Assembly: GCA_964469915.1 (NCBI GenBank)
Contig: CAYXZT010000001.1
Span: 29,938-92,337 of the forward strand
DNA length: 62,400 nt
Reading direction: 5' to 3'
Source: an uncultured Gammaproteobacteria bacterium
GTDB lineage: Bacteria; Pseudomonadota; Gammaproteobacteria; Magnimaribacterales; D2472
The position numbers were made by a program, and so were the translations under genes. Below are positions 46,627 through 62,400 of the stretch, piece after piece. How positions within the stretch are numbered: the first letter of the stretch is position 1; each line of letters begins with the position of its first letter. A model generated the notes under the pieces. That model saw nothing but the letters and a program-made list of their open reading frames with translations. It was not told the DNA's origin and made no database searches.

Positions 46627-46707
46627 TATTTACCTTATGGTTAAAGATTTAAACCTTAATTGGCTTAAACCAAGGAAAATGCATTCTAATGCAATTAAAT
46701 TTAGTTA

Positions 46708-47934
46708 TCAATACTCGCTTTTAACTATTTTTAAAAGTTTAGAAAACCAGCTTTGGCCTTGCTCAGCTATAAGCCCGTCACTAATTTGCTTATGGCCATG
46801 GTCCACGAGACCAATTGAAGTTGCATATATAGGATTTTGAAGAATACTTTCCATTCCAGAGAATTTGTTAGGTATTCCTAACCTTACAGAGGTTTGAAAA
46901 ATTGATTCTGCCAATTCCACAACTCCCTCCATCTTAGAAGTTCCCCCAGTAAAGACTACACCTGCTGAAATCTTATCCTCAAAACCATTTCTAGAAATTT
47001 CAGCTTTTACTAACTCAAATAGTTCTGTATAACGAGGTTGAACGATATCAGCTAAAGATGATCTAGAAAGTTCTCTTGTTGGTCTTCCACCAACACCAGG
47101 TACCTCAATGCTTTCATCTTCTTTTGTAAACTCCGCAACAGCACATCCATGCTTTTGTTTAATTTCTTCTGCTTGAGGGGTTGGGGTTCTTAGTGCCTGA
47201 GCGATATCACTGGTTACTTGGTCACCTGCAATAGGAATAACCCCTGTAAAAACAATTGACCCTGAATTAAAAATTGCAATATCTGTTGTTCCGCCACCAA
47301 TATCTACCAAGCAAACTCCTAGTTCTTTTTCATCTTCAGATAAAATTGAGTGTGAGCTTGCTAATTGCTCAAGAACAAAGCCATCTACTGACAAGCCGCA
47401 ATTCTTTATACATTTTTCAATATTTTTAATAGCACTATTCGCACAGGTAACTAAGTGAACCTTAGCCTCTAGCCTGACACCGGCCATACCAAGAGGATCC
47501 AAACTCACTTCTTGATTATCGATAACATATTCTTGAGGAAGAACATGCAAAACATTTTGATCTGAAGGAATTGATACAGCTTGTGCAGAATCAATGACTC
47601 TATCTATATCATAAGGTGTGACTTCTTTATCTTTTATGCCGACAGCACCTTGAGAATTTAAGCTTTTAATGTGGTTTCCTGCAATGCCTACATAAACAGA
47701 ATTTATTTTTTCTTCAATCATAGACTGCGCCTGCTCAACTGCTTTTTTTATAGCGTCTGTTGTAGCATCAATATTAACCACGACACCTTTTTTAAGGCCA
47801 CTAGAAGGGTATGACCCTAAAGATATAATTTCAAGCTTATTGGATTCATTGTATTTGCCAACAATACAAACAACCTTTGATGTGCCTATATCGAGACCAA
47901 CAACCATATTAGAATTTTTTGTATTATTAGCCAT
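46708..47934 (-). CDS. ftsA: Cell division protein FtsA
   Basis: Actin-fold phosphate motifs VGLDIGTSK and VDIGGGTTD, with a C-terminal amphipathic helix (WFSKLLKIVKSEY). Confidence 0.95.
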   Translation of the reverse strand: MANNTKNSNMVVGLDIGTSKVVCIVGKYNESNKLEIISLGSYPSSGLKKGVVVNIDATTDAIKKAVEQAQSMIEEKINSVYVGIAGNHIKSLNSQGAVGIKDKEVTPYDIDRVIDSAQAVSIPSDQNVLHVLPQEYVIDNQEVSLDPLGMAGVRLEAKVHLVTCANSAIKNIEKCIKNCGLSVDGFVLEQLASSHSILSEDEKELGVCLVDIGGGTTDIAIFNSGSIVFTGVIPIAGDQVTSDIAQALRTPTPQAEEIKQKHGCAVAEFTKEDESIEVPGVGGRPTRELSRSSLADIVQPRYTELFELVKAEISRNGFEDKISAGVVFTGGTSKMEGVVELAESIFQTSVRLGIPNKFSGMESILQNPIYATSIGLVDHGHKQISDGLIAEQGQSWFSKLLKIVKSEY

Positions 47935-48556
47935 ACTTTAGAGCAACTCCATCTTTGTATCTAAGATCTATTATCTTAGGTATTTTTCTTTTATCGTACA
48001 AGTAATTTAAGGTATCTTTGATAAGTTTAATCTTATTTATATCGATTTCCTTTCCAAGTTTTATTTCTGAGCTCTTGGTATTAATCAACCATCCTCTTAT
48101 ATGATTAAAGTTAATTGAAATAATTGCAAAATCATTTTTTTCATACATTGAAAAAAGATCTATTATTAGCATGACATCATTTAGATCTTTTATATCTCCA
48201 TTAATTTTTATCAGAGAAGTGTCTGTGAAATCAAACTTAAATTTTTTTAACTCTTCATCTACATAAAAAGTATTGTTAAGAATAAAAATTGGAATTCTAT
48301 TTTTAATAGAAATCTTGACTTCATTATCAAAAGGAAGAGATCTCATTGTGTAAGAAGAAATCCAGTCTTGATTATCAAGTAATAGCTTCAGTTCTTTTTT
48401 AGATTTAACAACAGATAATTTCTTAATAAAGGCTTTTTGGGAATCGAGCTGAATTCCAGATTCATAATTAATATCTAAACTAAGATCGCCAGCATTTAAA
48501 AAAATGTTAAAGCTTAAAAAGTAGCAAGCTAAAAAGTATTTAATCAATTGATGCAT
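47927..48556 (-). CDS. ftsQ: Cell division protein FtsQ (short)
   Basis: An N-terminal TM helix with POTRA-like and beta domains. It sits between ddl and ftsA. Length is 209 aa and the sequence is divergent. Confidence 0.75.
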   Translation of the reverse strand: MHQLIKYFLACYFLSFNIFLNAGDLSLDINYESGIQLDSQKAFIKKLSVVKSKKELKLLLDNQDWISSYTMRSLPFDNEVKISIKNRIPIFILNNTFYVDEELKKFKFDFTDTSLIKINGDIKDLNDVMLIIDLFSMYEKNDFAIISINFNHIRGWLINTKSSEIKLGKEIDINKIKLIKDTLNYLYDKRKIPKIIDLRYKDGVALKYG

Positions 48557-49445
48557 TAATTATTTTTTGAACAACCTGATTGTAACTTAAGCCAATGAAC
48601 TCTCCTGATTTTGGAACACAGCTATGTGAAGTCATACCAGGACTGGAATTTAATTCCAAAAAATATAAATCTCCATATTCATCTTCAAGAATATCTACTC
48701 TAGCCCATCCCGAACACTTTAAAGCTTCATATGAATCCCGGGCGAAGTTTTTTATTTTATCTATCCACTCATTGCTATATTGTGCTTCAACTAAATCTGT
48801 ATCATCAGACAGATACTTCGCTTCGTAATCATAGAAACTATTTGTAGTTTTGATCTCTATAGGAGGAAAAACCAAGTCTCCAATAATTGTTACAGTGTAT
48901 TCTTTATGCTTAATGGCTTCTTCGAGTATAAATGGTCCGTTCAGCGAACTTAGCTGCTGCAAAGTCTTTAAATACTCATTTTCATCTTTAATTTCAAAAA
49001 TATTAACACTTGAACCATCCATGGAAGGTTTTATAAAAAAATGATCAAAAGGAATATCCTTAAAACTTCTATTAAAATTCAAAGGATTATTTATTTGTAT
49101 TGAATCAGGTGTTTTGATTCCATTTTTTCTAATTAAATCTTTGCTTATTGATTTATTCCAGCTGTAAGAGCAGGATTCTGAATTAGAACCAGTAAAGGGA
49201 ATTCCAATTGTTTCAAGTTGTTTTTGTAAAGCTCCGCTTTCACCCTCTTCTCCATGCAGTGCTATGAAAATAAAATCGAAATTTCTTAGAACATTTATAT
49301 CTTTAATATCATTGATATCAAACTTATCACAATCATAACCTAGTGCGATAATTGCGTCATAAACTCTCTTTCCACTTTCTAAGGATACCTCTCTTTCCCC
49401 GGAAGATCCTCCAAACAGTACAGCAATCTTATCTATACTTTCCAT
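48540..49445 (-). CDS. ddl: D-alanine--D-alanine ligase
   Basis: An ATP-grasp enzyme with FIALHGEEGESG and FLELNSSPGMT motifs. Confidence 0.93.
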   Translation of the reverse strand: MESIDKIAVLFGGSSGEREVSLESGKRVYDAIIALGYDCDKFDINDIKDINVLRNFDFIFIALHGEEGESGALQKQLETIGIPFTGSNSESCSYSWNKSISKDLIRKNGIKTPDSIQINNPLNFNRSFKDIPFDHFFIKPSMDGSSVNIFEIKDENEYLKTLQQLSSLNGPFILEEAIKHKEYTVTIIGDLVFPPIEIKTTNSFYDYEAKYLSDDTDLVEAQYSNEWIDKIKNFARDSYEALKCSGWARVDILEDEYGDLYFLELNSSPGMTSHSCVPKSGEFIGLSYNQVVQKIINASID

Positions 49446-50818
49446 TTTTTAATTATCGAGTTGCAGACTGTTGATATGCTTCCAGCACCTTGTGTTATTA
49501 AAATATCAAAGTCATCTTTTCTTTTAACTATTAGATCATTAATATCATCATGATTTTTTAGATAAGTAACATCTTTATGTCCTTGCTGTTTTAAAGTTTC
49601 AACAATAGTTCTTGAATCAATTCCTTTTATGGGCTTTTCACTTGCAGCATAAATATCTAATATCAATAAAGAGTCGACCTTTTTAAGAACTTTTATAAAA
49701 TCGTTGAATAATTGAGCTGTTCTACTGAATCTATGTGGTTGAAAGATCATCAGCATTCTTTTCTTTGGAAATTCTTCTTTGTATGCTTTTATGGTTGAAA
49801 GAACTTCAATAGGGTGATGACCATAATCATCGATAAGTATTTTAGATAATGAATTTATACTAAGTTTATGTTTTTCATACCTTCTTCCAACACCAGTAAA
49901 TTGATGTATTCCTTTTCGAATTGCTGTTAAAGACACCCCCTCTTCCATTGAAACAGCAATTGCTGCTGCTGCGTTATAAATATTATGAATGCCAGGAAGT
50001 TGTATTTTGAATTTATAGATTTTTTCATTATTTTTAATCTTAAAAAGATGAATTCCTTTATCAAATGAAGGTTCGAGTATTTGATAGTCAGCCTGAGCAG
50101 ACTTACCAAAAGAAATTTGCTTTCTTGAGATACGTTTTGAAATTTTTTTAATATTTTTATCATCAATATTAACAATTAAATACCCATAAAAAGGAACATT
50201 TTCTGAAAATCTAATAAATGAATTTAGTAGATTTTCGAAATTATTATCGTAATGAACTAGATGGTCATCATCAATATTAGTTAAAACTGCTATATCTGGC
50301 TGCAGATGAATAAAAGACCCATCACTTTCATCAGCCTCAGCTATCAAATACCTTCCTTCACCTAGATCAGAGTTTTCATCAGTGCTTAAAACCTTGCCTC
50401 CAACAACATAAGTGGGACTTAACAATCCAACAGTAAATATTTCTGCTACCATGCTTGTCGTTGTTGTTTTTCCATGGCTGCCTGCAATTGCAATACTCTC
50501 ATAGCCTTTCATTAAGCTTCCTAACATCTCAGCTCTAGGTATTATTGTGATTGAACTCTTTCTTGCCTCAATAATTTCAGGGTTCTTTAGATCTATTGCT
50601 GATGATACTACGACAAGATTTACATTTTTTATGTTTGCTTGATCATGACCAATATAAACTTTAGCACCATTTTTTTTAAGTTTTTTTAATTCATGCGTTT
50701 CAGTGATATCTGATCCTGACACCTTGTACCCTTTTTTTAGAAGGACTCTAGCAATACCTATCATTCCAGATCCACCAATGCCAATAAAATGAATATGCTT
50801 TATTTTTTTAAAATTCAT
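49433..50818 (-). CDS. murC: UDP-N-acetylmuramate--L-alanine ligase
   Basis: GIGGSGM and the P-loop AGSHGKTTTT are present. Length is 461 aa. Confidence 0.95.
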   Translation of the reverse strand: MNFKKIKHIHFIGIGGSGMIGIARVLLKKGYKVSGSDITETHELKKLKKNGAKVYIGHDQANIKNVNLVVVSSAIDLKNPEIIEARKSSITIIPRAEMLGSLMKGYESIAIAGSHGKTTTTSMVAEIFTVGLLSPTYVVGGKVLSTDENSDLGEGRYLIAEADESDGSFIHLQPDIAVLTNIDDDHLVHYDNNFENLLNSFIRFSENVPFYGYLIVNIDDKNIKKISKRISRKQISFGKSAQADYQILEPSFDKGIHLFKIKNNEKIYKFKIQLPGIHNIYNAAAAIAVSMEEGVSLTAIRKGIHQFTGVGRRYEKHKLSINSLSKILIDDYGHHPIEVLSTIKAYKEEFPKKRMLMIFQPHRFSRTAQLFNDFIKVLKKVDSLLILDIYAASEKPIKGIDSRTIVETLKQQGHKDVTYLKNHDDINDLIVKRKDDFDILITQGAGSISTVCNSIIKKWKV

Positions 50819-50819
50819 G

Positions 50820-51866
50820 CTACTTACTCAAACTCTCTATTATTTTTGAAGAAATTAAAGTCGCAGCGTTAAGGTGCTCTAAATTTGTTACTGCTTTCCA
50901 ACTATTATAAGTTTTTTCCTCAATAACTTGTGTTATCTTTTTCTCAAGTTCATTTATACCATCTTCCTCGCTATGAACTATACCCATTCCAATATTTTCA
51001 ATATATTTTGCATTATGGAATTGATGATTATCTATTGATGATGGCAATGGAATCATTACCATGCCTCTTCCCATAGATGATATTTCAGAGATGCTTAAGG
51101 CTCCAGATCTAGTGATAACAAAATCAGACCATTCGATTAGTGACTGGGGGTTTTGATAAAACTCCTGTACTTCTGCACTAATATTACTTTTTTCATATAA
51201 ATTTATAACATCAGTTAATTTATTGATACCGCATTGATGTTTTACTTTAATATTTTGATTTATATTTTGAAGAATTTTTGGAATATTTGAGTTTAAGTAT
51301 TCAGCTCCTTGGCTTCCTCCAGTAACATATATATTAATTTCATTATTTGTATTGTTCTCACAGCTAGATTTCTTTGAAAAATTATCTCTTATAGGATTAC
51401 CACTTAAAAGATTATTTTTTACATTATTCTTTATAGGCAGCCCTAAAAAATTATATGTTGCAAACTGTGCAAGTAATTTGTTTGCTGATCCCTGAATCGA
51501 GTTTTGTTCATGAGTAAAAATAGGTCTTCTCATAATTACAAACGCTATCGAAGGAGGTATCGTAATAAAGCCACCGAAACCTATCATTGCATCGATTTTT
51601 TCTATTCTTATCAAATTAATAACACGAATAATTCCTAGAGGTATAAGAAAAAGTAATTTCATTTTTGAAATTATGCTCTTTCCTCGATATCCATCCATTT
51701 TTATGGTTTGGTAATTAAAATCTTTTTCACTTACCGCATCTACTTCTATACTTTCTCCAGATCCTAGAAATACTATCTCATGACCCCTTTTTTTTAATTC
51801 ATCTGCAACTGCTATAGCTGGGAATATGTGACCTCCTGTCTTTGCTGCAGATATTAAAATTTTCAT
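50820..51866 (-). CDS. murG: Lipid II-forming GlcNAc transferase MurG
   Basis: N-terminal G-loop AAKTGGHIFPA in a 348-aa protein. Confidence 0.93.
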   Translation of the reverse strand: MKILISAAKTGGHIFPAIAVADELKKRGHEIVFLGSGESIEVDAVSEKDFNYQTIKMDGYRGKSIISKMKLLFLIPLGIIRVINLIRIEKIDAMIGFGGFITIPPSIAFVIMRRPIFTHEQNSIQGSANKLLAQFATYNFLGLPIKNNVKNNLLSGNPIRDNFSKKSSCENNTNNEINIYVTGGSQGAEYLNSNIPKILQNINQNIKVKHQCGINKLTDVINLYEKSNISAEVQEFYQNPQSLIEWSDFVITRSGALSISEISSMGRGMVMIPLPSSIDNHQFHNAKYIENIGMGIVHSEEDGINELEKKITQVIEEKTYNSWKAVTNLEHLNAATLISSKIIESLSK

Positions 51867-51870
51867 TAGC

Positions 51871-52992
51871 TTATATTAATTTGTTTTCATGATTTATTCT
51901 AAGAACTATAGCTATTAAACACATCATTATTATGATGCTGGTACCACCATAGCTTATAAATGGTAATGTTAAGCCTTTTGTTGGGAGTAACCCTATATTT
52001 ACAGCTATATTGAATAACGCCTGTACAGCTATCAATACAAAAATACCAAAAGATGAATAACCTTGAAATAGTCTGCCTTTTTTTAATGAATCTATTACAA
52101 CTCTTAGAATACCAATAAATAAAATTACAAATAAAAATAATACAAACAATCCTCCAATTACTCCTAACTCCTCAACAATAATCGCAAAAATAAAGTCTGT
52201 GTGTGCCTCTGGAAGAAAGAAGTTTTTTTGAAAGCTATTCCCTAACCCAAGGCCAAACCATCCACCCTGACCTATTCCAATTAAAGAATTTGATAGCTGC
52301 CATCCTGAATTATTTATAACTTCGGGGGCAAACGGGTCAGTAAAAGCCATAACCCTAGCAATTCTCCATGGGGAACTATAAACAGCTAAGTACCCTAAAA
52401 GTAAAATTAAGACGGAAAGAAGACTAAACTGAAAAAATGAGATTCCAGCATAAAAAAGAATCGCCACAACTAATAAACATATTATTGCAGTTGAGCCTAA
52501 GTCTGGCTGACTCATAACCAATAAAGCTATTATAAATAAAAGAAAAAGTGGCTTTAAAAAGCTCCTTAAAGAATCTATCTCAGACATTCGTCTCACAGAA
52601 TAACCTGATATGTATAAAATCAAGCTAAATTTGCATATTTCGGATGGCTGAATATTTATTGGTCCAGCTCTAATCCACCTAGTACTCCCATTAACAGTTG
52701 TACCAATATCCGGAAAAAAAAGCGCGCATAGTAAAATAATACTTATGAGCATAAAAACCCAATCAAACTTATATAAAAAATCTGAAGAGATGACAGAAAA
52801 AATTATCATTACTATAAGCCCAATAGATATAAATATCATTTGTCTTGATGCAAAGTGAAATGGATCTGCATAATTTTCATCTGCAAAGTAAATGCTTGCT
52901 GACGAAACCATAATTATTCCTATTGATATAAGGGCTATAAACGGTATTAATATAAGTAGATTATTGATTCTATGATTCATTAAATAACTCAT
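51871..52992 (-). CDS. ftsW: SEDS peptidoglycan glycosyltransferase FtsW
   Basis: A 10-TM SEDS protein with PEAHTDFIFA and LPFISYGGTS motifs. An alternative ATG lies at 52980. Confidence 0.9.
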   Translation of the reverse strand: MSYLMNHRINNLLILIPFIALISIGIIMVSSASIYFADENYADPFHFASRQMIFISIGLIVMIIFSVISSDFLYKFDWVFMLISIILLCALFFPDIGTTVNGSTRWIRAGPINIQPSEICKFSLILYISGYSVRRMSEIDSLRSFLKPLFLLFIIALLVMSQPDLGSTAIICLLVVAILFYAGISFFQFSLLSVLILLLGYLAVYSSPWRIARVMAFTDPFAPEVINNSGWQLSNSLIGIGQGGWFGLGLGNSFQKNFFLPEAHTDFIFAIIVEELGVIGGLFVLFLFVILFIGILRVVIDSLKKGRLFQGYSSFGIFVLIAVQALFNIAVNIGLLPTKGLTLPFISYGGTSIIIMMCLIAIVLRINHENKLI

Positions 52993-54001
52993 GAACTAAT
53001 GAATTAAAACTGCTGCCTCTTTCTTCAAAATTTTTGTAATCATCTCCACTTGGATATCCGGGTGAGAATAAAATATTTTTCTCTAATGATAGATTTTTTA
53101 TAAATTGAAGAGTGTCTTCTAAATCATTAAATATTTGCTTATTAGAGTGAGATATACAATTTTCTATTTCTTTTTTATGTGCTCCGAAAATTAAAATAGC
53201 TTCAGGTCCACTTATGACTAAATTTTTAAATTGCTCTTTTTTGGGATCGCCGCATAACAAAAGAAAATAATTATTAATTCCAAATTTTTGGTTTGCCTTC
53301 TCAACTGCATACTCAAGTGAGTTTGAGTTTGTTGATTTAGAGTCATTAATAATTGAGCTACTAATCTTTTGAAATCTAAATGGCAAGTCTTTAAGATCTT
53401 GAATGGCTGCACTTCTACCTGATATCCATTCATATAGTTTATATGGGTCATCTTCGTAAGAAGTATTTCTTGATTTTAGCAATCGATGTTTTGCTTTCTT
53501 GTAGTCCTCAAAAGTATCATGATAATCTAAATGATCAGGAGTAATATCCAATAAAATACCATAATCTAAGCTTGGATTTTCTGCCTTATCAAGCTGAAAA
53601 CTTGATAGTTCTATGATCGAGTACTTGGAGCCATTGTTGATATGATCTAACATTGGCTCCCCAATATTTCCGATAAGATTTGTTTTAGCATCTCTTTGAA
53701 AAATTTGATGTAAATGATAACAAGTTGTACTTTTTCTATTAGTTCCGCTTATACCAATTTTAATTGATCTATCCTCTTGAAGAAAAATATCAATATCAGT
53801 AAGTACTTTTGTTGAAGACTTTAGTAGCTCAAATGTTTTCCTATCCACTCCAGGGCTACAATATATTGTTTTATAGCGATCCAGTTTAGATATATTTGAA
53901 TTAATATTTTTATCATATATATCATAGTCAATATTTTTCTTTTTTAGATATCTTTCAAAAGATTTTCCTGTAATACCATATCCATAAATCAGGGATTTCA
54001 T
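52970..54001 (-). CDS. murD: UDP-N-acetylmuramoylalanine--D-glutamate ligase (short, divergent)
   Basis: It sits between mraY and ftsW. Motifs are GISGTNRKSTT (P-loop variant), ELSSFQL, ITPDHLDYH, INDSKSTN and a C-terminal NFEERG. I start at the ATG at 54001; the track's TTG start is at 54007. Confidence 0.8.
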   Translation of the reverse strand: MKSLIYGYGITGKSFERYLKKKNIDYDIYDKNINSNISKLDRYKTIYCSPGVDRKTFELLKSSTKVLTDIDIFLQEDRSIKIGISGTNRKSTTCYHLHQIFQRDAKTNLIGNIGEPMLDHINNGSKYSIIELSSFQLDKAENPSLDYGILLDITPDHLDYHDTFEDYKKAKHRLLKSRNTSYEDDPYKLYEWISGRSAAIQDLKDLPFRFQKISSSIINDSKSTNSNSLEYAVEKANQKFGINNYFLLLCGDPKKEQFKNLVISGPEAILIFGAHKKEIENCISHSNKQIFNDLEDTLQFIKNLSLEKNILFSPGYPSGDDYKNFEERGSSFNSLVHELFNES

Positions 54002-54009
54002 CGACAATT

Positions 54010-55095
54010 TTATCTTAGCTTTAGGGTTGCCAAAGCTATTAAAATCAATACAAGAGTAATAATCCAGAAACGCACAATGATTTTTGGCTCAGGCCAACCT
54101 TTAAGTTCATAATGATGATGAATTGGCGCCATTAAAAACACTCTTTTCCCACGTGTCTTAAATGATATAACTTGAATTGCAACACTCAATGTTTCAATAA
54201 CAAATACGCCAGCCATGATTGCAAAAACAAGCTCATGTCTTAGAATAATTGCTAAAATTCCAAGTATGGCACCTAGAGTAAGAGAGCCGATGTCTCCCAT
54301 AAAAATTTGAGCAGGATAGGTATTGTACCAAAGAAAGCCAATCCCTGAGCCTATCAAAGCACCACAGAAAACAATTAATTCACCTGATAATTTTAAATGC
54401 GGTAAATATAAGTAATCTGCAATTATTTGATTTCCCATACTATATGCTATTAATCCAAGAGCTCCGGCAATAAGCACTGAGGGCAAAATTGCTAAGCCAT
54501 CTAAACCATCTGTAAGATTAACTGCATTCGAAGACCCTACTAGAACAAACATACCGATAAGAATAAATACCAATGGACTCATTGGAATTAATAAATCCTT
54601 AAAAAATGGAACGATAAAAGATGTTTCTGGAGCAGCTTCTGCAGAATAAAATAAATATGCTACTGATATAAATGAAAAGGCAATCTGGAGAATAATTTTA
54701 TGTTTAGATGACAAACCATCAGAGCTTTTTTTCTTTATTTTGATGTAGTCATCAATAAATCCAATCATTGCAAAAGAAACTGTTACAAATAAGACAACCC
54801 AAATGTATCTATTGCTTAAATCAGCCCATAATAAAGTTGATATTACCAAAGAAGATAGTATGAGAAGACCTCCCATGGTTGGAGTGCCTGATTTCTTATA
54901 ATGAGATTCTGGGCCTTGAGTTCGAACGTGCTGCTCAAACTGCAAAGATTTCAATAACTTTATAATAAATGGGCCCATTAATATAGAGATCATGAGTGCA
55001 GTCACAGTTCCTCCTAGTGTTCTAACAGTCAGGTATCGCAGAACATCAAATCCAGGATCATAATCAACAAGTACGGTTCCTAGATATTCAAACAT
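54010..55095 (-). CDS. mraY: Phospho-N-acetylmuramoyl-pentapeptide transferase
   Basis: A 361-aa polytopic membrane protein with NLTDGLDGLA and HHHYE motifs. Confidence 0.97.
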   Translation of the reverse strand: MFEYLGTVLVDYDPGFDVLRYLTVRTLGGTVTALMISILMGPFIIKLLKSLQFEQHVRTQGPESHYKKSGTPTMGGLLILSSLVISTLLWADLSNRYIWVVLFVTVSFAMIGFIDDYIKIKKKSSDGLSSKHKIILQIAFSFISVAYLFYSAEAAPETSFIVPFFKDLLIPMSPLVFILIGMFVLVGSSNAVNLTDGLDGLAILPSVLIAGALGLIAYSMGNQIIADYLYLPHLKLSGELIVFCGALIGSGIGFLWYNTYPAQIFMGDIGSLTLGAILGILAIILRHELVFAIMAGVFVIETLSVAIQVISFKTRGKRVFLMAPIHHHYELKGWPEPKIIVRFWIITLVLILIALATLKLR

Positions 55096-56425
55096 TTATA
55101 AATTTTTCCATTTGCATACCTCTTGAGCCCTTTATAAGAACAATATCTCCTTTTGATACGTTCTTTTTTAAGAAAATTTTTAATTCGCCCTCATTATTAA
55201 AAAATATTCCATTTTTTCCAAATTCATCTACAGCATATTTCGCTAAGTCACCAAAACCAACAAAAATATCTATTTTCTTTTTTAGTGCATATTTTCCTAT
55301 ATCTTTATGCATTTGTTTTCTCATTCTACCTAACTCAAGCATATCTCCTAAAACTAAAATTTTTCTTTTTTCTGAATGTGATAAGAGGTCTACAGATTTT
55401 TTTACTGAATCTGGATTTGCATTATACGTATCATCGATTAATGTTGACCTGTTTATCCAATTGCTTTGATTTTGTCTACCAGTCAGTTTGACGTTACTTA
55501 TGTTTTTTACAATGCTTTTTTCAGGCTTGTTTAAAAAAAATAAAACTGCATAAGCAGCTAATATATTTTTAATATTATGCTCTCCTGCTAAATTAATATT
55601 TACTTTTTGTTCAACACAATATTTATCAGATAAGATTGTAAAAGCTGAGCTATTTGTTTTGTATTTAATATTTGATGCTCTAAAGTCAGCGTCTTTATCT
55701 AACCCAAAAGTGATTATGGAAATATCATTACGCATTTTTTTCCATTGACTTTCGTGTTTTCCATTTTCAGATGGAATAACCAAGCAACCATCTTTTTTTA
55801 TATTATTCACGATCTCTGATTTAACCTTAAAGACTCCATTTATGTTTTTGAGGTTTGCAAGATGAGAGTTACCAATATTTGTAATTACTCCAATATGAGG
55901 CTTCAAGAAAGAGCTTAAATAATGAATATCGCCAGGCTTGGCTGCACCCATCTCAATGACAAGTGTATTAGAAGTTCTATTTGCATTCATTATGCTTAGT
56001 GGCATCCCTATTTCATTATTAAAATTTTTAATTGTGCTTGAGCTACCTTTGATGCATTGTGAAATAATACTTGTGGTTGAGGTTTTGCCATTACTACCTG
56101 TTATGCCAACTATTTTACCTTGAAAGCTATTTATTATATTTTTTGATATTTTTTTTAACGCATCTATTGAGTTTGGGACATAGACAATCCGTTTATCATT
56201 TGAATTCTTATATATTTTTTTATCAGTAATTACAATTGAAGCTCCCTTTTTAATTGCCGTATCAATATGATCATTTCCATCAAAGTTATTGCCTTTTATA
56301 GCAATAAATAATGATTTCTTTTTTAAGGTTCGTGTATCAGTAGAAATATCTTTAATAGGAATATTTTTTATAATTTTTATGCCCAAAAATTCTGATACAT
56401 CATTTGAATTACTTATAAATTTCAT
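55088..56425 (-). CDS. murF: UDP-MurNAc-tripeptide--D-alanyl-D-alanine ligase
   Basis: P-loop GITGSNGKTSTT in a 445-aa protein. Confidence 0.9.
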   Translation of the reverse strand: MKFISNSNDVSEFLGIKIIKNIPIKDISTDTRTLKKKSLFIAIKGNNFDGNDHIDTAIKKGASIVITDKKIYKNSNDKRIVYVPNSIDALKKISKNIINSFQGKIVGITGSNGKTSTTSIISQCIKGSSSTIKNFNNEIGMPLSIMNANRTSNTLVIEMGAAKPGDIHYLSSFLKPHIGVITNIGNSHLANLKNINGVFKVKSEIVNNIKKDGCLVIPSENGKHESQWKKMRNDISIITFGLDKDADFRASNIKYKTNSSAFTILSDKYCVEQKVNINLAGEHNIKNILAAYAVLFFLNKPEKSIVKNISNVKLTGRQNQSNWINRSTLIDDTYNANPDSVKKSVDLLSHSEKRKILVLGDMLELGRMRKQMHKDIGKYALKKKIDIFVGFGDLAKYAVDEFGKNGIFFNNEGELKIFLKKNVSKGDIVLIKGSRGMQMEKFINV

Positions 56426-57905
56426 TTACAACCTCGTGATCACTAAAAAAATTAGTTTTTCCAGATATTTCTTGTGTTTCTTCATGTCCTTTACCAAGAA
56501 TAACTAAACAATCATCATCACCTACAAGCTTACTGCCATAAATTATTGCCTCTCTTCTATCTTCTATAGGTATAATTTTTTCTTCTTTATTTCCTTCTAC
56601 AGCATCTTCAAAAATTGAACTAAAATCCTCACTCCTTGAATTATCAGTGGTGAAAATAATATCACTAGCATTAGCTATAGCAGCTTGCATCATTTTCGGT
56701 CTTTTAGATCTATCTCTATCACCGCCACAACCAAAAACTACAATAAGTTTACTGAAATAATTTTTAATTGATGATAAGAATAACTCTAAGCCTTCTGCAT
56801 TATGAGCGAAATCAATTATTACATTTGCAGGTATGTTGTTAATTAATTCAGTCCTTCCCTTAGGAAGATTTAAGTAATTTAAATTATTTATAGCAGATTG
56901 TGAAAAATCAGAAAAGCCAATAGAACAAAGCCCAAATACCAAATTCTCAATATTAAATTCAGGGAATAGTCTGCATGAAAATTTATAAGTTGTACTTGAT
57001 GAAGGGAAATAACCAATTGGAGGATTATTTATTTTTATATTAAATAATGACTTGTCTATATCGGATGAGACTACTTCATAATAAATATCAGCAGATTTAT
57101 TTACTTTACTTATTGATGTTAATTTGTAATTGTCATTTTTTAAATAATTATAATTATCTTCTAATTTTGTAAGATTATCGTTAATCAACATTAAAGGGCA
57201 AGAAGGATTAAATATTTGAAACTTAGCATTAGCATATGCTTTTGAATTACCGTGATAATCAAGATGATCTGTACCAATATTTAATAGAGCTGCTGAATTG
57301 TAAAAAGAAATACCTTTCAATCTTTCTTGACTTAAAGCATGTGAAGAAATTTCGATACAAACTGATACTGAATCATGGAAGTTATAAAAATTAAAAATTT
57401 CAAAGAATTCAAAAATATCTGGTGTCGTTTTTGAAGAAATGCTTTTATTCATTTGTTCATCATTATATTTTGTTCCAAGAGTTCCTATATAAATAGATTC
57501 ATATCCACTTTTTACTAAAATCTGATGAGTTAAATACGCAGTTGAAGTTTTCCCATTTGTACCTGTAAAAGCAAAGTAATTATTTTTATTTTGAATGTCA
57601 TAAAGTTTGTAAAACTCTTCCAAGAAAAGAAATATTTTATTTTTAAAAGTAAATGAATCAAAGATAGATAAATCCTTCACATAGATAACATTATCTTCAT
57701 TGTTTATGTAGTTAGGATCATCGTGGATAACTAATGAGGCTCCTGAATCTATTGCTTCTCCTATATATTCACTGCCGTGAGAGTTTATGCCCTTTAGCGC
57801 AAAAAATACAAATCCATCTTTAACTTTCTGCGAGTTATTAGTAACCCCATTAATAATTACATCTTTTGGGAAATTAACTCCTAAGATACTTTCCAAGCTA
57901 CTCAT
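56409..57905 (-). CDS. murE: UDP-MurNAc-L-Ala-D-Glu--2,6-diaminopimelate ligase
   Basis: P-loop FTGTNGKTSTA. The track start at 57920 is TTG and overlaps ftsI. The ATG at 57905 (MSSLESIL...) lies 2 nt after the ftsI stop. Confidence 0.92.
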   Translation of the reverse strand: MSSLESILGVNFPKDVIINGVTNNSQKVKDGFVFFALKGINSHGSEYIGEAIDSGASLVIHDDPNYINNEDNVIYVKDLSIFDSFTFKNKIFLFLEEFYKLYDIQNKNNYFAFTGTNGKTSTAYLTHQILVKSGYESIYIGTLGTKYNDEQMNKSISSKTTPDIFEFFEIFNFYNFHDSVSVCIEISSHALSQERLKGISFYNSAALLNIGTDHLDYHGNSKAYANAKFQIFNPSCPLMLINDNLTKLEDNYNYLKNDNYKLTSISKVNKSADIYYEVVSSDIDKSLFNIKINNPPIGYFPSSSTTYKFSCRLFPEFNIENLVFGLCSIGFSDFSQSAINNLNYLNLPKGRTELINNIPANVIIDFAHNAEGLELFLSSIKNYFSKLIVVFGCGGDRDRSKRPKMMQAAIANASDIIFTTDNSRSEDFSSIFEDAVEGNKEEKIIPIEDRREAIIYGSKLVGDDDCLVILGKGHEETQEISGKTNFFSDHEVVNEIYK

Positions 57906-59517
57906 CTTCTTTGTACCCAAGATAGTTCAGTGAGCTATCAGCAATTTTTTTAAATAAGGGTGCCGCTACCATCCCACCTGAGTAAGCATTTAAGCCAGGC
58001 TCTTCGATTGAAACAAAGATTGTTAGTGACTTATCAGAAAGTGGTGCTATCCCTACGAATGATGCCCTGTAAGCATCTTCAGCATAACCATTACCATATG
58101 ATGTTTTATGTACGGTTCCAGTTTTACCACCTTCAGTATATCCACGAATATCTGCCTTCTTTCCAGTTCCTATTTTTACAACTTCTTTGAGAGCTTCTAA
58201 GGTATGTTGTGCGGAGTTTTCAGAAATAATTCTGTTTGCATCAACTTCATCACTCTTTATGATTTTAAAATCTTTATATATACCTTTATTTGCAAATACC
58301 GAATATGCCGAGGTAATTTGAAATGGACTTACGGTGAGGCCATAGCCATAACCCAAGCTTGCTAGCTCCTTATCAGCTATTTTTTCTTTTGTATTCATGT
58401 ATCCAAATGCAGCTGATGGAAAGTTAATTGAAATTGGTTTACTAAACCCAAATTCATAATAAGCATTTTTCAATTCTTCATAACCCAGCATAAGAGCAAT
58501 CTTTGAGGCACCAACTTGACTTGAAAAAGCAATTATTTCTTTGGGGCTTAACTTTTCATATCCTTTGTAATCGCTAATAATTTTATCATTAAGCTTAAGA
58601 CGTCTGGGTATTTCAATAGCTTGATCAGGATCAAAAATACTATTGTTGATTGCCGTTGAAAGGAGGATTGGCTTTAGAACAGACCCTAATTCATATGCAT
58701 CAATGAGAGCCCTATTTTTTTGTATTACCCTTCCAGGATCATTTGGGTTGTATGATGGGTAGCTAGCAATAGCAAGAACTTCACCAGTAAAATTATCAAA
58801 TACTAGAGCTGTTCCAGCCTTCGCTTGGTTGTCTTTTATTGATTCCACAAGAAATTTATAAGCATAAAACTGAATGGTTGAATCTATAGTTAGTACTATA
58901 TCTTTACCTTGAACAGTCTTTTCAACCTCAATAGGTTTGGAAATAATTTTTTGTTTAGCGTTCTTATAAATTTTTTCTATGCCATTCTTACCAGAGAGTA
59001 CTGAATCATAGCTTTTTTCTAACCCTTCTTGAGCCCTGTCTTTTCCATAAAAACCTATTAATGGTGCAATTTGATCCCCTAAAGGATAATGTCTGCTGTG
59101 TCTGACTTCAATTTCGAGCTTGTTATTTCGAAGATTCTGAATAATTTTTTGTTCATCTCTAGAAAGCCCTTTTTTAATCAAAGTCTTCTTTGAAAATTCT
59201 TGATTGATGATTGGATTGCCATCAATAGAAATCAGATCATTTATCGATATAAATTCAGATTTTTTTAAACCTTTTAGTGCATAAAGATCATAATTGATAA
59301 TAGAGACAGCTAATGGAAAGTTATTTCGGTCATAAATAGTTCCCCGGATTGGATTGATATTCCTATACTTGATATATTTTTTTTTGCCTTCATTTTTTAG
59401 AAAAATACTGTCATCTATTTGTAAGGATATAATTTTATAAGCTATTGCAAAAATAGCTAAACAAAAAAAAGAACATACTAAAATAAAACGCCAATTTATA
59501 ATGCTAATCTTCTTCAT
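57898..59517 (-). CDS. ftsI: Peptidoglycan D,D-transpeptidase FtsI (PBP3)
   Basis: An N-terminal TM helix with transpeptidase motifs SxxK (GSVLKP) and KTG (GKTGT). Length is 539 aa. Confidence 0.93.
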   Translation of the reverse strand: MKKISIINWRFILVCSFFCLAIFAIAYKIISLQIDDSIFLKNEGKKKYIKYRNINPIRGTIYDRNNFPLAVSIINYDLYALKGLKKSEFISINDLISIDGNPIINQEFSKKTLIKKGLSRDEQKIIQNLRNNKLEIEVRHSRHYPLGDQIAPLIGFYGKDRAQEGLEKSYDSVLSGKNGIEKIYKNAKQKIISKPIEVEKTVQGKDIVLTIDSTIQFYAYKFLVESIKDNQAKAGTALVFDNFTGEVLAIASYPSYNPNDPGRVIQKNRALIDAYELGSVLKPILLSTAINNSIFDPDQAIEIPRRLKLNDKIISDYKGYEKLSPKEIIAFSSQVGASKIALMLGYEELKNAYYEFGFSKPISINFPSAAFGYMNTKEKIADKELASLGYGYGLTVSPFQITSAYSVFANKGIYKDFKIIKSDEVDANRIISENSAQHTLEALKEVVKIGTGKKADIRGYTEGGKTGTVHKTSYGNGYAEDAYRASFVGIAPLSDKSLTIFVSIEEPGLNAYSGGMVAAPLFKKIADSSLNYLGYKEDE

Positions 59518-59788
59518 GTGCTTTCAATATGTATATTTTTTTTGCTTTCCTCTTAATCATGCCAAGCTCTTCTTTAGCAGTTTTTTCTATACTTGCAGGT
59601 GAATTATTGGTGTTAAATTGTGTAATCAGCTTAAGGTTAGTATCTTTAAAGTCCTCATATTCTTTTCTTAGGTTTTCTTGATTTGAGTGTAACCTGCTTA
59701 TTTCAAAAGATAGTTTGACTTTCTCTAAAGATAAAAAACATATAATAAACAAAAATAATAATAAAATATAAGTATTCGTTTTTGTCAT
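59504..59788 (-). CDS. ftsL: Cell division protein FtsL
   Basis: A 94-aa bitopic protein with a TM helix and a leucine-zipper-like coiled coil. It sits between rsmH and ftsI. Confidence 0.7.
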   Translation of the reverse strand: MTKTNTYILLLFLFIICFLSLEKVKLSFEISRLHSNQENLRKEYEDFKDTNLKLITQFNTNNSPASIEKTAKEELGMIKRKAKKIYILKAHEED

Positions 59789-60681
59789 TATATTTTCTTA
59801 AAAACTCTCATAATCGCACTTCTTGAACGTTTATTTAAATTAACTTCATCTTCTGTTGGCCGAATTTTTTTTGCGATACATGTAAAGTCTTTTTCTTCAA
59901 TCATGTTTAAAGGAATATCTTTTGGGAAATTTCTAACACTTGGTTTAAAAAACTCTTTAACTATATTGTCTTCCAAGGAATGAAAAGAAATTACAACGAT
60001 AATACCTTCTTTTACAAGAATATTACTTGCTTGAGTTAATGATTGTTTTAATTCATCTAGCTCATCATTGATGTGAATTCTAAATGCCTGAAATGATTTG
60101 GTCGCTGGATGTATTTTTTTTCTTTTTTCTGGATATACATCTTCAATTATATTGGCTAATTGTTTGGTTGAAATGATTTCATTTTTTGATCTTTCTTCTA
60201 AGATAGATCTCGAGATAATTTTTGCATGCTTCTCATCTCCATACTTATATAAGATATCCATGATTTCTTTTTGTGGTGCATTATTTATCCATTCAGATAG
60301 AGGCTTACCTCGAGTAACATTGAATCGCATATCGAGAGGTCCATCATTCAAAAAACTAAAACCCCTATTGCCCTCATCAAAATGAGTAGAGCAAGTCCCT
60401 AGATCATAAAGAATTCCGTCAATGCTTTCTTTGGGAAAGGTTTCTTCTAATTTGTTAAATGAGCTATGAACTGCTTTAAAATTATCGGCCTTGATAAGAG
60501 AAGCATGATTAAAAGCATCTAGATCTTTGTCAAATGATGTGAGCTGTCCACTAGAATCTATCCTGTTTAATATAGCGGAAGTATGTCCACCTCTCCCATA
60601 TGTACAGTCTATATAATTACCATTTTTTTTGTGGATGAGAAAATCTAAAGACTCTTCCAGTAATACTGGAAAATGAAGCAT
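59788..60681 (-). CDS. rsmH: 16S rRNA m4C1402 methyltransferase RsmH
   Basis: MLHFPVLLEE... N-terminus with GRGGHTSA, DLGTCS and SFHSLED motifs. Confidence 0.95.
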   Translation of the reverse strand: MLHFPVLLEESLDFLIHKKNGNYIDCTYGRGGHTSAILNRIDSSGQLTSFDKDLDAFNHASLIKADNFKAVHSSFNKLEETFPKESIDGILYDLGTCSTHFDEGNRGFSFLNDGPLDMRFNVTRGKPLSEWINNAPQKEIMDILYKYGDEKHAKIISRSILEERSKNEIISTKQLANIIEDVYPEKRKKIHPATKSFQAFRIHINDELDELKQSLTQASNILVKEGIIVVISFHSLEDNIVKEFFKPSVRNFPKDIPLNMIEEKDFTCIAKKIRPTEDEVNLNKRSRSAIMRVFKKI

Positions 60682-60682
60682 A

Positions 60683-61792
60683 TCAATCTACTTGTTTTCT
60701 CATAAAAGTGGGCACATCAAGGAAATCAATTTCCGCTGCAGACGATGTGCCCCCTTCTTGATCAATGTTATCTCTTCTTAAACCAACAGGATTTAATTGA
60801 ATGCTCGGCTGATTGTCTATAACTAGGGTTGGAGCCCTTTGGTCGACACCTGTTGCTACTATGGTTACAAGTAAATCATCATCTACTGTTTCGTCATAAA
60901 CCAAACCATAAATAATATTTGCATCTTCATGAACTATTTCTTCAACGATATCAGCTACTTCTGTTTGATCACCTAGTGTAGGTTTTGCTGCTGTGATATT
61001 TACTAAGACACCTCTGGCATTTTTAAGATTAATATCTTCTAATAGCTCACTTTTCACTGCTTGAGTTGCTGCTGCTTCTGCTCTATTTTTTCCACTTGCT
61101 CTTCCAGTACCCATCATTGCAATGCCTTTTTCTGACATCACTGTTTTAACATCTGCAAAGTCAACATTAATATGTCCTTTTTTCATAATGATATCTGAAA
61201 TACCTTGAACAGCGCCCTTTAATACATCGTCTGCTTTTGCAAAAGCATCTTGCATTGCAGTGTCTTCACCTAGAATTTCATAAAGTTTTTGATTGGGGAT
61301 TGTGACAAGACTATCAACCTCTTCAACTAATGCGGCTAGGCCTTTTTCAGCTGCCGACATTCTTTTTTTACCTTCAAATTTAAATGGCTTAGTTACAACC
61401 GCAACAGTTAATGCACCCATATCTTTAGCAATTGATGCTACAACAGGAGCTGCACCGGTTCCTGTACCACCACCCATGCCTGCGGTAATAAATATCATAT
61501 CTGCACCAACTAGAAGTTCTTCAATTGCAGCTCTATCACTTTCTGCTGCCTTTCTACCAACATCAGGATTAGCTCCAGCTCCAAGACCTTTTGTAAGTCC
61601 ATTTCCCAGTTTTAATGTGATAGCGCCGTTTGCCTCTGAAAGTGCTTGAGTGTCAGTATTAGCACAAATAAAGTCAACTCCTTCAATATTGTGATTAATC
61701 ATATGAATCACAGCATTGCCGCCTGCACCACCAACGCCTACAACCTTTATTTTTGCATTTTCAACTGCCTGACCAATTACTTCAAAATTCAT
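60683..61792 (-). CDS. ftsZ: Cell division GTPase FtsZ
   Basis: GVGGAGGNAV and the tubulin signature GMGGGTGTGAAP are present. The C-terminal FtsA/ZipA-binding peptide IDFLDVPTFMRKQ is retained. I start at the ATG at 61792 (the track's GTG is at 61795), with a GGGGA SD upstream. Confidence 0.97.
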   Translation of the reverse strand: MNFEVIGQAVENAKIKVVGVGGAGGNAVIHMINHNIEGVDFICANTDTQALSEANGAITLKLGNGLTKGLGAGANPDVGRKAAESDRAAIEELLVGADMIFITAGMGGGTGTGAAPVVASIAKDMGALTVAVVTKPFKFEGKKRMSAAEKGLAALVEEVDSLVTIPNQKLYEILGEDTAMQDAFAKADDVLKGAVQGISDIIMKKGHINVDFADVKTVMSEKGIAMMGTGRASGKNRAEAAATQAVKSELLEDINLKNARGVLVNITAAKPTLGDQTEVADIVEEIVHEDANIIYGLVYDETVDDDLLVTIVATGVDQRAPTLVIDNQPSIQLNPVGLRRDNIDQEGGTSSAAEIDFLDVPTFMRKQVD

Positions 61793-61804
61793 CACTTTCC
61801 CCTT

Positions 61805-62272
61805 TTAGAATGACATTGATTTAATACTCTCTGGAAGTACTACATCTAAAACTTCTGTTGACAAAGAACCGCCCATTTGTCTCATATCCCAATTATTAAT
61901 ATTCCAAACCTCAAATTTGTCACCCATTCCAATAATACAAATCTGTTTTTGATCTGCGATATCAGCATATTTTCTTAATTCTAAAGGTATCAATGCCAAC
62001 ATTCTTCCCTCTAGGTCTAGATCAATAACATGTGCATTTCCTAGAATAGTCCATTGAAGGCTTCTAACAATTGGATCTAAACTTTGAAGTGATTGGAGTT
62101 TTGATGAAATATTATTCCACTCTGACTCAGGATAAATTTTTAAAGAAGGGTATTGAGGGTCTTTTGTTATTACAATTTTTGTTTCTTTATTCTCAACTAA
62201 ATTACAACGATACTTAGCAGGGATAGCTAATCTACCCTTTGTATCTAATGAAACTGCATTAAAACCATACAT
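61805..62272 (-). CDS. mraZ: Transcriptional regulator MraZ
   Basis: Two SpoVT/AbrB-like DxxxR motifs, DTKGRLAIP and DLEGRMLALIP. I start at the ATG at 62272 (MYGFNAVSLD...). The longer track ORF would run through the operator-like repeats. Confidence 0.9.
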   Translation of the reverse strand: MYGFNAVSLDTKGRLAIPAKYRCNLVENKETKIVITKDPQYPSLKIYPESEWNNISSKLQSLQSLDPIVRSLQWTILGNAHVIDLDLEGRMLALIPLELRKYADIADQKQICIIGMGDKFEVWNINNWDMRQMGGSLSTEVLDVVLPESIKSMSF

Positions 62273-62295
62273 TATGAAAATATATAGATTTTTTG

Positions 62296-62320
62296 CACAC
62301 TTTGCAACACATTTACACAC
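62296..62320 (-). promoter_or_regulatory. Candidate MraZ operator: three direct pentamers at 10-bp phase
   Basis: The minus strand reads GTGTG-TAAAT-GTGTT-GCAAA-GTGTG (pentamers at 62320..62316, 62310..62306 and 62300..62296). E. coli MraZ binds three TGGGN repeats separated by 5-nt spacers in the same relative location. Confidence 0.55.
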
Positions 62321-62351: not shown

Positions 62352-62400
62352 TATGAGTTGGTCTATAAGCCGGATTCTGTAAATGATGATCATCTATCTA
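62352..62400 (-). ncRNA. rnpB: RNase P RNA (bacterial type A), 3'-terminal portion only; continues beyond the right edge
   Basis: The reverse complement of 62400..62350 is TAGATAGATGATCATCATTTACAGAATCCGGCTTATAGACCAACTCATATT. The E. coli rnpB 3' end as I recall it is CTAGATGAATGACTGTCCACGACAGAACCCGGCTTATCGGTCAGTTTCACCT. The universally conserved ACAGAAnCCGGCUUA (P4 3' strand) is present and followed by a T7 run. The exact 3' end is uncertain by about 5 nt. Confidence 0.7.

Follow-up and report, generated by a model that had tools for sequence, protein, structure and literature searches.

A relocated ftsZ in the division and cell wall cluster of SAR86 bacteria

The dcw cluster (for division and cell wall) is among the most conserved bacterial gene orders. 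In E. coli and Pseudomonas, it runs mraZ-rsmH-ftsL-ftsI-murE-murF-mraY-murD-ftsW-murG-murC-ddl-ftsQ-ftsA-ftsZ-lpxC, and the textbook account of the FtsZ:FtsA ratio rests on the terminal ftsQ-ftsA-ftsZ segment and the promoters inside it. Here, we discuss a 62.4-kb stretch of DNA (hereafter, the window) in which ftsZ lies between mraZ and rsmH as the second gene of the cluster. The window makes up the final 62.4 kb of contig 1 in a 1.12-Mb metagenome-assembled genome (MAG; 114 contigs, 79.5% complete) belonging to SAR86, a bacterial group that ranks with the most abundant of the surface ocean. Is this ftsZ the genuine division gene of the cell, how did it come to lie near the 5′ end of the cluster, and what might its position mean for FtsZ synthesis? 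We found that the gene is genuine, present as the sole copy, and vertically inherited, and that ftsZ has left its terminal position across the whole SAR86 order. The likely explanation of the evidence taken jointly is a real, vertically inherited transposition of ftsZ, with gene position and translation signals proposed to set the FtsZ level.

Identity of ftsZ and anatomy of the locus

Genes were called from a listing of open reading frames (ORFs) together with NCBIfam profile scans, with Pfam and solved-structure comparison added for ftsZ and Pfam for mraZ. The ftsZ product scored 395.5 bits on TIGR00065 (cut-off, 295.2), contained the Pfam domains Tubulin (165.9 bits) and FtsZ_C (87.6 bits), and matched solved FtsZ chains of the PDB (E = 5e-120). 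Its translation includes the GTP-binding signature GGGTGTG (in MGGGTGTGAAP), the T7 synergy loop NxDxxD as NVDFADV (in HINVDFADV), and the C-terminal peptide that docks FtsA and ZipA (IDFLDVPTFMRKQVD), which was kept in all 50 family loci. An alternative GTG start is found at 61795, one codon upstream of the ATG. The source genome has a single ftsZ, and there was exactly one per genome in the 238 SAR86 genomes with a match. FtsZ identity was 92–99% within the genus and 65–90% within the family; in the FtsZ tree, the family formed one clan with 100% support whose nearest relatives were other SAR86, and horizontal acquisition was rejected on this grouping. The gene is the division ftsZ of the cell: genuine, the sole copy, and vertically inherited.

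On the minus strand, the locus reads rnpB / mraZ-ftsZ-rsmH-ftsL-ftsI-murE-murF-mraY-murD-ftsW-murG-murC-ddl-ftsQ-ftsA / rpsF-rpsR-rplI-dnaB-alr. The complete co-oriented gene set from mraZ to ftsZ is thus present as one block, in which ftsQ was placed by position and weak similarity only. The mraZ stop codon (TAA, 61805-61807) and the ftsZ ATG (61790-61792) are 12 nt apart, and one nucleotide (60682) separates the ftsZ stop codon (TGA, 60683-60685) from the rsmH ATG (60679-60681). The gene that follows ftsA is rpsF, and lpxC is found on a separate contig (C60), flanked by a SpoU-type rRNA methylase gene and secA. The original prediction, made from the letters of the window, had described a bona fide ftsZ with the GGGTGTG signature and C-terminal peptide, tight junctions on both sides with a Shine-Dalgarno (SD) sequence in the first, a place upstream of ftsA in an otherwise canonically ordered cluster, and a putative MraZ operator in front; all of these held, the operator at the level of sequence. 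The features are as follows.

62354-62400, minus strand: rnpB (RNase P RNA), 3′ end, truncated where the contig stops; ...cagaatccggcttatagaccaactca followed by tatttttttt
62296-62320, minus strand: candidate MraZ operator, GTGTG / GTGTT / GTGTG at an exact 10-nt period
62279-62307, minus strand: candidate Pmra promoter, TTGCAA, 17 nt, TATATT, from a consensus scan
61805-62272, minus strand: mraZ, 155 aa (Pfam PF02381, TIGR00242)
61793-61804, minus strand: mraZ-ftsZ spacer of 12 nt, AAGGGGAAAGTG, containing the ftsZ SD (GGGG at 61799-61802)
60683-61792, minus strand: ftsZ, 369 aa (TIGR00065, Pfam, PDB, copy count)
60653-60682, minus strand: ftsZ-rsmH junction, with a 1-nt spacer, an SD-less rsmH ATG, and then a hairpin
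59788-60681, minus strand: rsmH (TIGR00006, 318.7 bits)
46708-59788, minus strand: ftsL, ftsI, murE, murF, mraY, murD, ftsW, murG, murC, ddl, ftsQ candidate, and ftsA, in canonical order (NCBIfam)
47927-48556, minus strand: ftsQ candidate, 209 aa, placed by position and weak similarity to the same-slot ORF of relatives
46708-47934, minus strand: ftsA, last gene of the dcw cluster
46627-46707, minus strand: ftsA-rpsF spacer of 81 nt, now the cluster's 3′ terminus, with a promoter-like TTGATA-17-TAGAAT at 46711-46683

The contig ends inside rnpB, approximately 130 nt upstream of mraZ; a complete rnpB occupied the same position in a 99%-similar closed relative (L138 7111-7445, 325.7 bits). Compared with the canonical cluster, the gene set, the orientation, the order of 14 of the 15 genes, and the MraZ boxes before mraZ are the same, as is rnpB upstream of mraZ, which was also found in the outgroups checked. 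The differences are that ftsZ is gene 2 rather than gene 15, that ftsA is last and abuts rpsF, and that lpxC-secA lies elsewhere, behind the SpoU-type methylase gene. Moreover, E. coli sets ftsZ expression by promoters inside the ddl/ftsQ/ftsA region, whereas here that region can no longer act as an ftsZ promoter region. The genome is highly compact, and most dcw junctions overlap or span a few nucleotides.

Distribution across SAR86 and the Gammaproteobacteria

We designated the family of the source genome (probably GTDB D2472, ‘Suzuki’) as f1 and the other three SAR86 families as f2, f3, and f4. The original prediction saw the arrangement as particular to a single genome; instead, it is a trait of the whole family, kept in independent assemblies that include a closed genome and single-cell genomes. 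The order mraZ-ftsZ-rsmH was found in 22 of the 22 genus loci with flanks reaching mraZ (24 species genomes, including the closed 1.30-Mb genome G018) and in 12 of the 12 loci representing the other nine genera of the family, which covers all 10 genera. Among named SAR86 records, single-cell genomes included, 14 of 14 had mraZ-ftsZ-rsmH-ftsL-ftsI, with FtsZ identities of 69–97%.

These comparisons bear on whether the arrangement could be an artifact. A misjoin that put ftsZ between mraZ and rsmH would be conceivable in a MAG fragmented into 114 contigs, one of which breaks off some 130 nt upstream of mraZ. However, both ftsZ junctions are internal to the contig, and the same order recurred in independent assemblies, namely the single-contig 1.30-Mb G018, several genomes of one to four contigs, and single-cell genomes; the comparative data refute an assembly chimera, to which we give practically no credence. 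It is just as hard to believe that the gene is a paralogue or a horizontally acquired copy, with the canonical ftsZ beside lpxC in the 20% of the genome that is missing from the assembly. The assembly is indeed just 79.5% complete, but closed and near-closed relatives each had exactly one ftsZ, and in all of them the neighbors of lpxC were the SpoU methylase gene and secA, never ftsZ. In addition, rpsF directly follows ftsA, and the product retains the FtsA/ZipA-binding C-terminal peptide and groups with SAR86 FtsZ in the tree. The original prediction had itself listed a second ftsZ and the whereabouts of lpxC among its checks; no second ftsZ was found in the genome, and lpxC lies between its new neighbors on contig C60.

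Gene order in the other SAR86 families was checked in 20-kb stretches of closed or near-closed genomes. The canonical order was found in no SAR86 family among f1–f4. Families f2 and f3 had rnpB-mraZ-rsmH-ftsL-(ftsQ)-ftsA-ftsZ-ftsI-murE...ddl / rpsF (six f2 and five f3 genomes), and f4 had rsmI-rnpB followed after 19 nt by ftsZ-rsmH-ftsL-ftsI...ddl-(ftsQ)-ftsA / rpsF (five genomes). No mraZ was found upstream of ftsZ in five of five f4 genomes (L129, L130, L131, L159, and L160), nor anywhere in a whole-genome search of one of them, G027. Thus, f1 and f4 share ftsZ-rsmH...ftsQ-ftsA (configuration A), and f2 and f3 share rsmH-ftsL-(ftsQ)-ftsA-ftsZ-ftsI (configuration B). All four families have a promoter-proximal ftsZ downstream of rnpB. 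In f2 and f3, however, the whole ftsQAZ block moved and landed after ftsL, whereas f4 has the ftsZ-rsmH junction in common with f1 but differs in lacking mraZ, in the 19-nt distance from rnpB to ftsZ, and in having ATT at the rsmH start position. Throughout the order, ftsZ has left the terminal position, and ftsA in f1 is now 13 genes on from ftsZ.

Two further junctions were common to all four families: the dcw cluster next to rpsF-rpsR-rplI-dnaB, and the order SpoU-type methylase (rlmB)-lpxC-secA (L002, L144-L153). Most outgroup loci had ftsA-ftsZ-lpxC. The two SAR86 junctions resemble the reciprocal products of one ancestral exchange between an ftsZ|lpxC and an rlmB|rpsF junction; the adjacency of rlmB and rpsF is presumably found in Pseudomonas.

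We also surveyed the class using one genome per gammaproteobacterial family, which gave 74 genomes whose mraZ and ftsZ shared a contig. In 67 of these, ftsZ was 13.3–16.8 kb downstream of mraZ; it was 20–53 kb downstream in three and 197 kb away on the other side of mraZ in one. Only the remaining three, namely the source genome, G342, and G333, had ftsZ within 1.1 kb of mraZ, and direct mraZ-ftsZ adjacency was restricted to the f1 family of SAR86 among the loci surveyed. G342 and G333 belong to another gammaproteobacterial order and have mraZ-rsmH-ftsZ-ftsL-ftsI...ftsQ-ftsA-lpxC-secA. As in f1, ftsZ alone moved forward to the first operon slots and ftsQ-ftsA was left at the 3′ end; the insertion is, however, one gene further down, after rsmH, and ftsA still abuts lpxC. 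The motif GGTGGTTTAAA was seen after the ftsZ stop codon in both genomes of this lineage, at the start of an ftsL-like ORF (L142 12150-12640; L143 15480-16040).

No description of the mraZ-ftsZ-rsmH order was found in the literature on SAR86 ftsZ, SAR86 dcw, dcw gene order, or Magnimaribacter, and the SAR86 isolate paper makes no mention of cell division or synteny. The SAR86 placement of ftsZ is a new variant of the known dcw cluster, not a new kind of system. A close parallel is the minimal dcw operon of Mollicutes, mraZ-mraW(rsmH)-ftsA-ftsZ (PMC12957436), where ftsZ is likewise a few genes from an MraZ-controlled promoter in a reduced genome with GTG(G/T) boxes at a 10-bp period. In Mollicutes, however, it was the deletion of the peptidoglycan genes that brought ftsZ this close, and ftsA still precedes it, whereas f1 retains all peptidoglycan genes and ftsZ alone has moved, upstream of rsmH and 14 kb from ftsA.

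Origin of the SAR86 gene orders

A tree built from a concatenation of 15 proteins (5331 columns) split the SAR86 families into (f1,f4) and (f2,f3) with 100% support. The published pairing agrees, with Suzuki/D2472 beside CHAB-I-7 and Magnimaribacteraceae beside RedeBAC7D11 (PMC11582366). Because of this split, the two gene orders map onto the two halves of the SAR86 order. In the FtsZ tree, the long f4 branch was drawn toward the outgroups (74% support), which reads as long-branch attraction rather than as a sign of transfer.

The likely history for f1 is that the single ftsZ left the 3′ terminus of the dcw cluster by transposition, landed in the slot between mraZ and rsmH, and was then inherited vertically, the move having been fixed in the ancestor of D2472 (‘Suzuki’, itself a probable family label). 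The move probably dates to the common ancestor of f1 and its fast-evolving sister f4. In block transpositions, each SAR86 configuration is a single step away from the canonical order, and configurations A and B are two steps from each other. Given canonical outgroups, two independent forward moves in SAR86 (two events) are therefore more parsimonious than a single origin (three events), as far as a parsimony inference goes. The opposing scenario, in which ftsZ moved forward once in the SAR86 ancestor and was reshuffled later in one branch, draws on the location of ftsZ near the 5′ end in all four families, and on the shared derived dcw / rpsF and rlmB-lpxC junctions, which imply that the cluster was already rearranging in the stem lineage. 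We consider it somewhat doubtful, since it costs the additional event under the same parsimony inference. The move in G342 and G333 is a third, independent one, because these genomes are of a different order and pair with each other in the FtsZ tree, away from SAR86.

Expression signals and the possible role of position

The candidate operator consists of three MraZ boxes, GTGTG-N5-GTGTT-N5-GTGTG, at 62320, 62310, and 62300 on the minus strand. The boxes of the source genome match the MraZ consensus in the literature, GTG(G/T) with 6-nt spacers and a 10-bp period (PMC12957436). They are conserved across all genera of the family, with a fourth box in some members, and the candidate promoter is conserved in this genus and related ones of the family; as a sequence element, this putative MraZ operator is genuine and conserved. 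The −35 element of the Pmra candidate (TTGCAA) overlaps box 2, and 6 nt lie between the end of the −10 element (TATATT) and the mraZ ATG. The mraZ product matched Pfam MraZ (PF02381) at 76.6 bits in two stretches and scored 96 bits on TIGR00242, just below the cut-off of 98.35. Its start codon lacks an SD (duplex energy, +2.2 kcal/mol), and because the −10 element also ends so close to the ATG, the mraZ mRNA may be leaderless or near-leaderless. A scan of 45.5-62.4 kb of the window for promoters and terminators, evaluated against shuffles, recovered the Pmra and rpsF candidates and gave no convincing terminator between mraZ, ftsZ, and rsmH.

We measured SD strength as anti-SD duplex energy and compared all 68 ORFs in the window (median, −1.6 kcal/mol). 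The ftsZ SD, at −7.8 kcal/mol, was the third strongest of the 68 and the strongest in the dcw cluster, and an AGGGG-type SD occurred 5–8 nt before the ftsZ ATG in 49 of 50 family loci. The gap between ftsZ and rsmH was 1–5 nt in all family loci, and rsmH has no SD of its own. Just inside rsmH, at nt +9 to +29 (60653-60673, minus strand), lies the hairpin UUUUCCAGU-AUU-ACUGGAAGA, with the core TTCCAG-N5-CTGGAA. Among 36 unique family sequences, the stem codons were frozen (Pro5 CCA in 35, Leu8 CTG in 36, and Glu9 GAA in 35), and the only two stem changes were compatible with G-U pairing, whereas synonymous sites flanking the stem varied freely. By comparison, CTG makes up 3.4% of the Leu codons in 22 window genes. 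The hairpin was predicted in seven of seven diverse family members that were folded and was absent in f2, f3, and f4.

From these signals, we propose the following working of the f1 locus. As part of a Pmra transcript starting directly downstream of rnpB, ftsZ would be the first efficiently translated cistron: mraZ would be translated weakly because it has no SD and almost no leader, and ftsZ strongly because it has the strongest SD in the cluster. Since the three GTGT boxes overlap Pmra, binding of MraZ there would place FtsZ synthesis under MraZ autoregulation. The 1-nt gap, the missing SD, and the conserved hairpin just inside rsmH suggest that only ribosomes coming straight from ftsZ probably translate rsmH, i.e., by translational coupling, which would step expression down after ftsZ for the low-abundance proteins encoded downstream. 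Operon position (gene 2 versus gene 15) and translation signals would then determine the FtsZ:FtsA ratio, no longer promoters inside ftsQ and ftsA as in E. coli. It is plausible that a promoter-proximal position sets a high FtsZ dosage in place of the ftsQ/ftsA internal promoters, as the original prediction had suggested. This would be consistent with the conserved translation signals, the junction behind ftsZ, the recurrent forward moves in small-genome marine lineages, and the absence of MinD described below.

Several observations weigh against this reading. A neutral rearrangement fixed in a small-genome lineage would leave the same pattern of conservation. The promoter scan gave fewer promoter-like sites than the shuffles and neither proves nor excludes an ftsZ-specific promoter inside mraZ. 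The hairpin is short, its folding z-scores are modest (−1.4 to −3.7), the fold of the whole 101-nt ftsZ/rsmH junction was not significant (z = −1.28), and the stem is almost invariant and hence shows no true covariation; the support for the hairpin rests on codon freezing, not on energy. Finally, ftsI, the gene after ftsZ in f2, has an ordinary AGGAG and ATG start.

The rival account is a neutral change of order, in which ftsZ moved by chance, has or gained a promoter of its own within the 3′ part of mraZ, and leaves the FtsZ:FtsA ratio about where it was, with the tight junctions reflecting general compaction. The extreme compactness of the genome, with most dcw junctions overlapping or spanning a few nucleotides, and the ordinary start of the gene after ftsZ in f2 speak for such a history. 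Yet three independent forward moves all brought ftsZ within the first four positions of this one operon, against 67 of 74 families with the canonical arrangement, the unusually strong ftsZ SD is conserved, the hairpin codons of rsmH are frozen, and in the sister family f4, ftsZ begins 19 nt after rnpB, which leaves no room for a promoter of its own. We therefore judge a purely neutral change unlikely and favor a transposition in which position and translation signals matter for the FtsZ level.

The forward moves into the first four operon slots occurred in three configurations (SAR86 A, SAR86 B, and G342/G333), and this recurrence suggests selection. Searches of seven SAR86 genomes (G000, G018, G155, G149, G031, G026, and G033) found no MinD in any of the seven; the best matches, at 62 bits (cut-off, 212.9), resemble other ParA/Mrp-type ATPases. 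Because MinD is absent from these genomes, FtsZ control appears to be otherwise pared down. In the same genomes, a search for ZipA gave sub-threshold matches to the C-terminal domain (19–32 bits against a cut-off of 119.65) in ORFs of approximately 200–230 aa. A broader proposal would be that position serves as a device of FtsZ dosage and regulation in streamlined marine Gammaproteobacteria, with at least three independent moves made because internal promoters and FtsZ regulators such as Min were shed; f1 would carry a module of a strong SD followed by a coupled, attenuated start, and f4 a simplified version in which mraZ was lost and ftsZ was joined to the rnpB unit. We offer this generalization tentatively, as a possibility that falls short of an even chance.

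If position does set dosage, the four related layouts would amount to a natural experiment on division control in a minimal cell. One SAR86 family has a cultured member (PMC11582366); the cultured strain HIMB1674 is of configuration B. Transcripts of ftsZ have been used as a growth index in the sea, with rnpB as the baseline (PMC13349992). Such studies would be affected, since in SAR86 ftsZ probably shares a transcript with mraZ and, in f4, perhaps with the baseline gene rnpB.

The starts of the genes after ftsZ, and of ftsZ itself, vary among the other families. In f4, ATT occupies the place of the rsmH start codon (ATT AAR CAT...) and overlaps the ftsZ stop codon (AATTAA; L136 1550-1600, L137 1420-1470, L131 17560-17600), and no in-frame ATG, GTG, or TTG was found near it; this points to a non-canonical start or to strict reinitiation after ftsZ. 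In f3, ftsI has a TTG start 1 nt after the ftsZ stop codon and no SD (L127 2470-2475; L128 17567-17610). A general rule of a crippled start on every gene that follows a moved ftsZ would fit f1 (hairpin), f4 (ATT), and f3 (TTG) but fails in f2 and was rejected. The f4 ftsZ ATG lies 19 nt beyond the rnpB 3′ end, an interval that has neither a U-run nor an SD and leaves no room for a promoter (L129 16111-16480; five genomes). There, ftsZ and the dcw operon may share a transcript with RNase P RNA or start from a promoter inside rnpB.

Two other genes of the cluster were also variable. The ORFs in the ftsQ slot (approximately 210 aa; window 47927-48556, relative L125 4837-5493) matched no Pfam or NCBIfam family, and one f3 genus has just a 73-aa ORF between rsmH and ftsA (L127 4827-5048), so ftsQ may be missing there. 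MurD (window 52970-54007) is short in f1 and f4, at 342–357 aa, save for one f1 genus at 414 aa, and is 401–436 aa in f2 and f3; the MurD deletion follows the same (f1,f4) grouping as the position of ftsZ.

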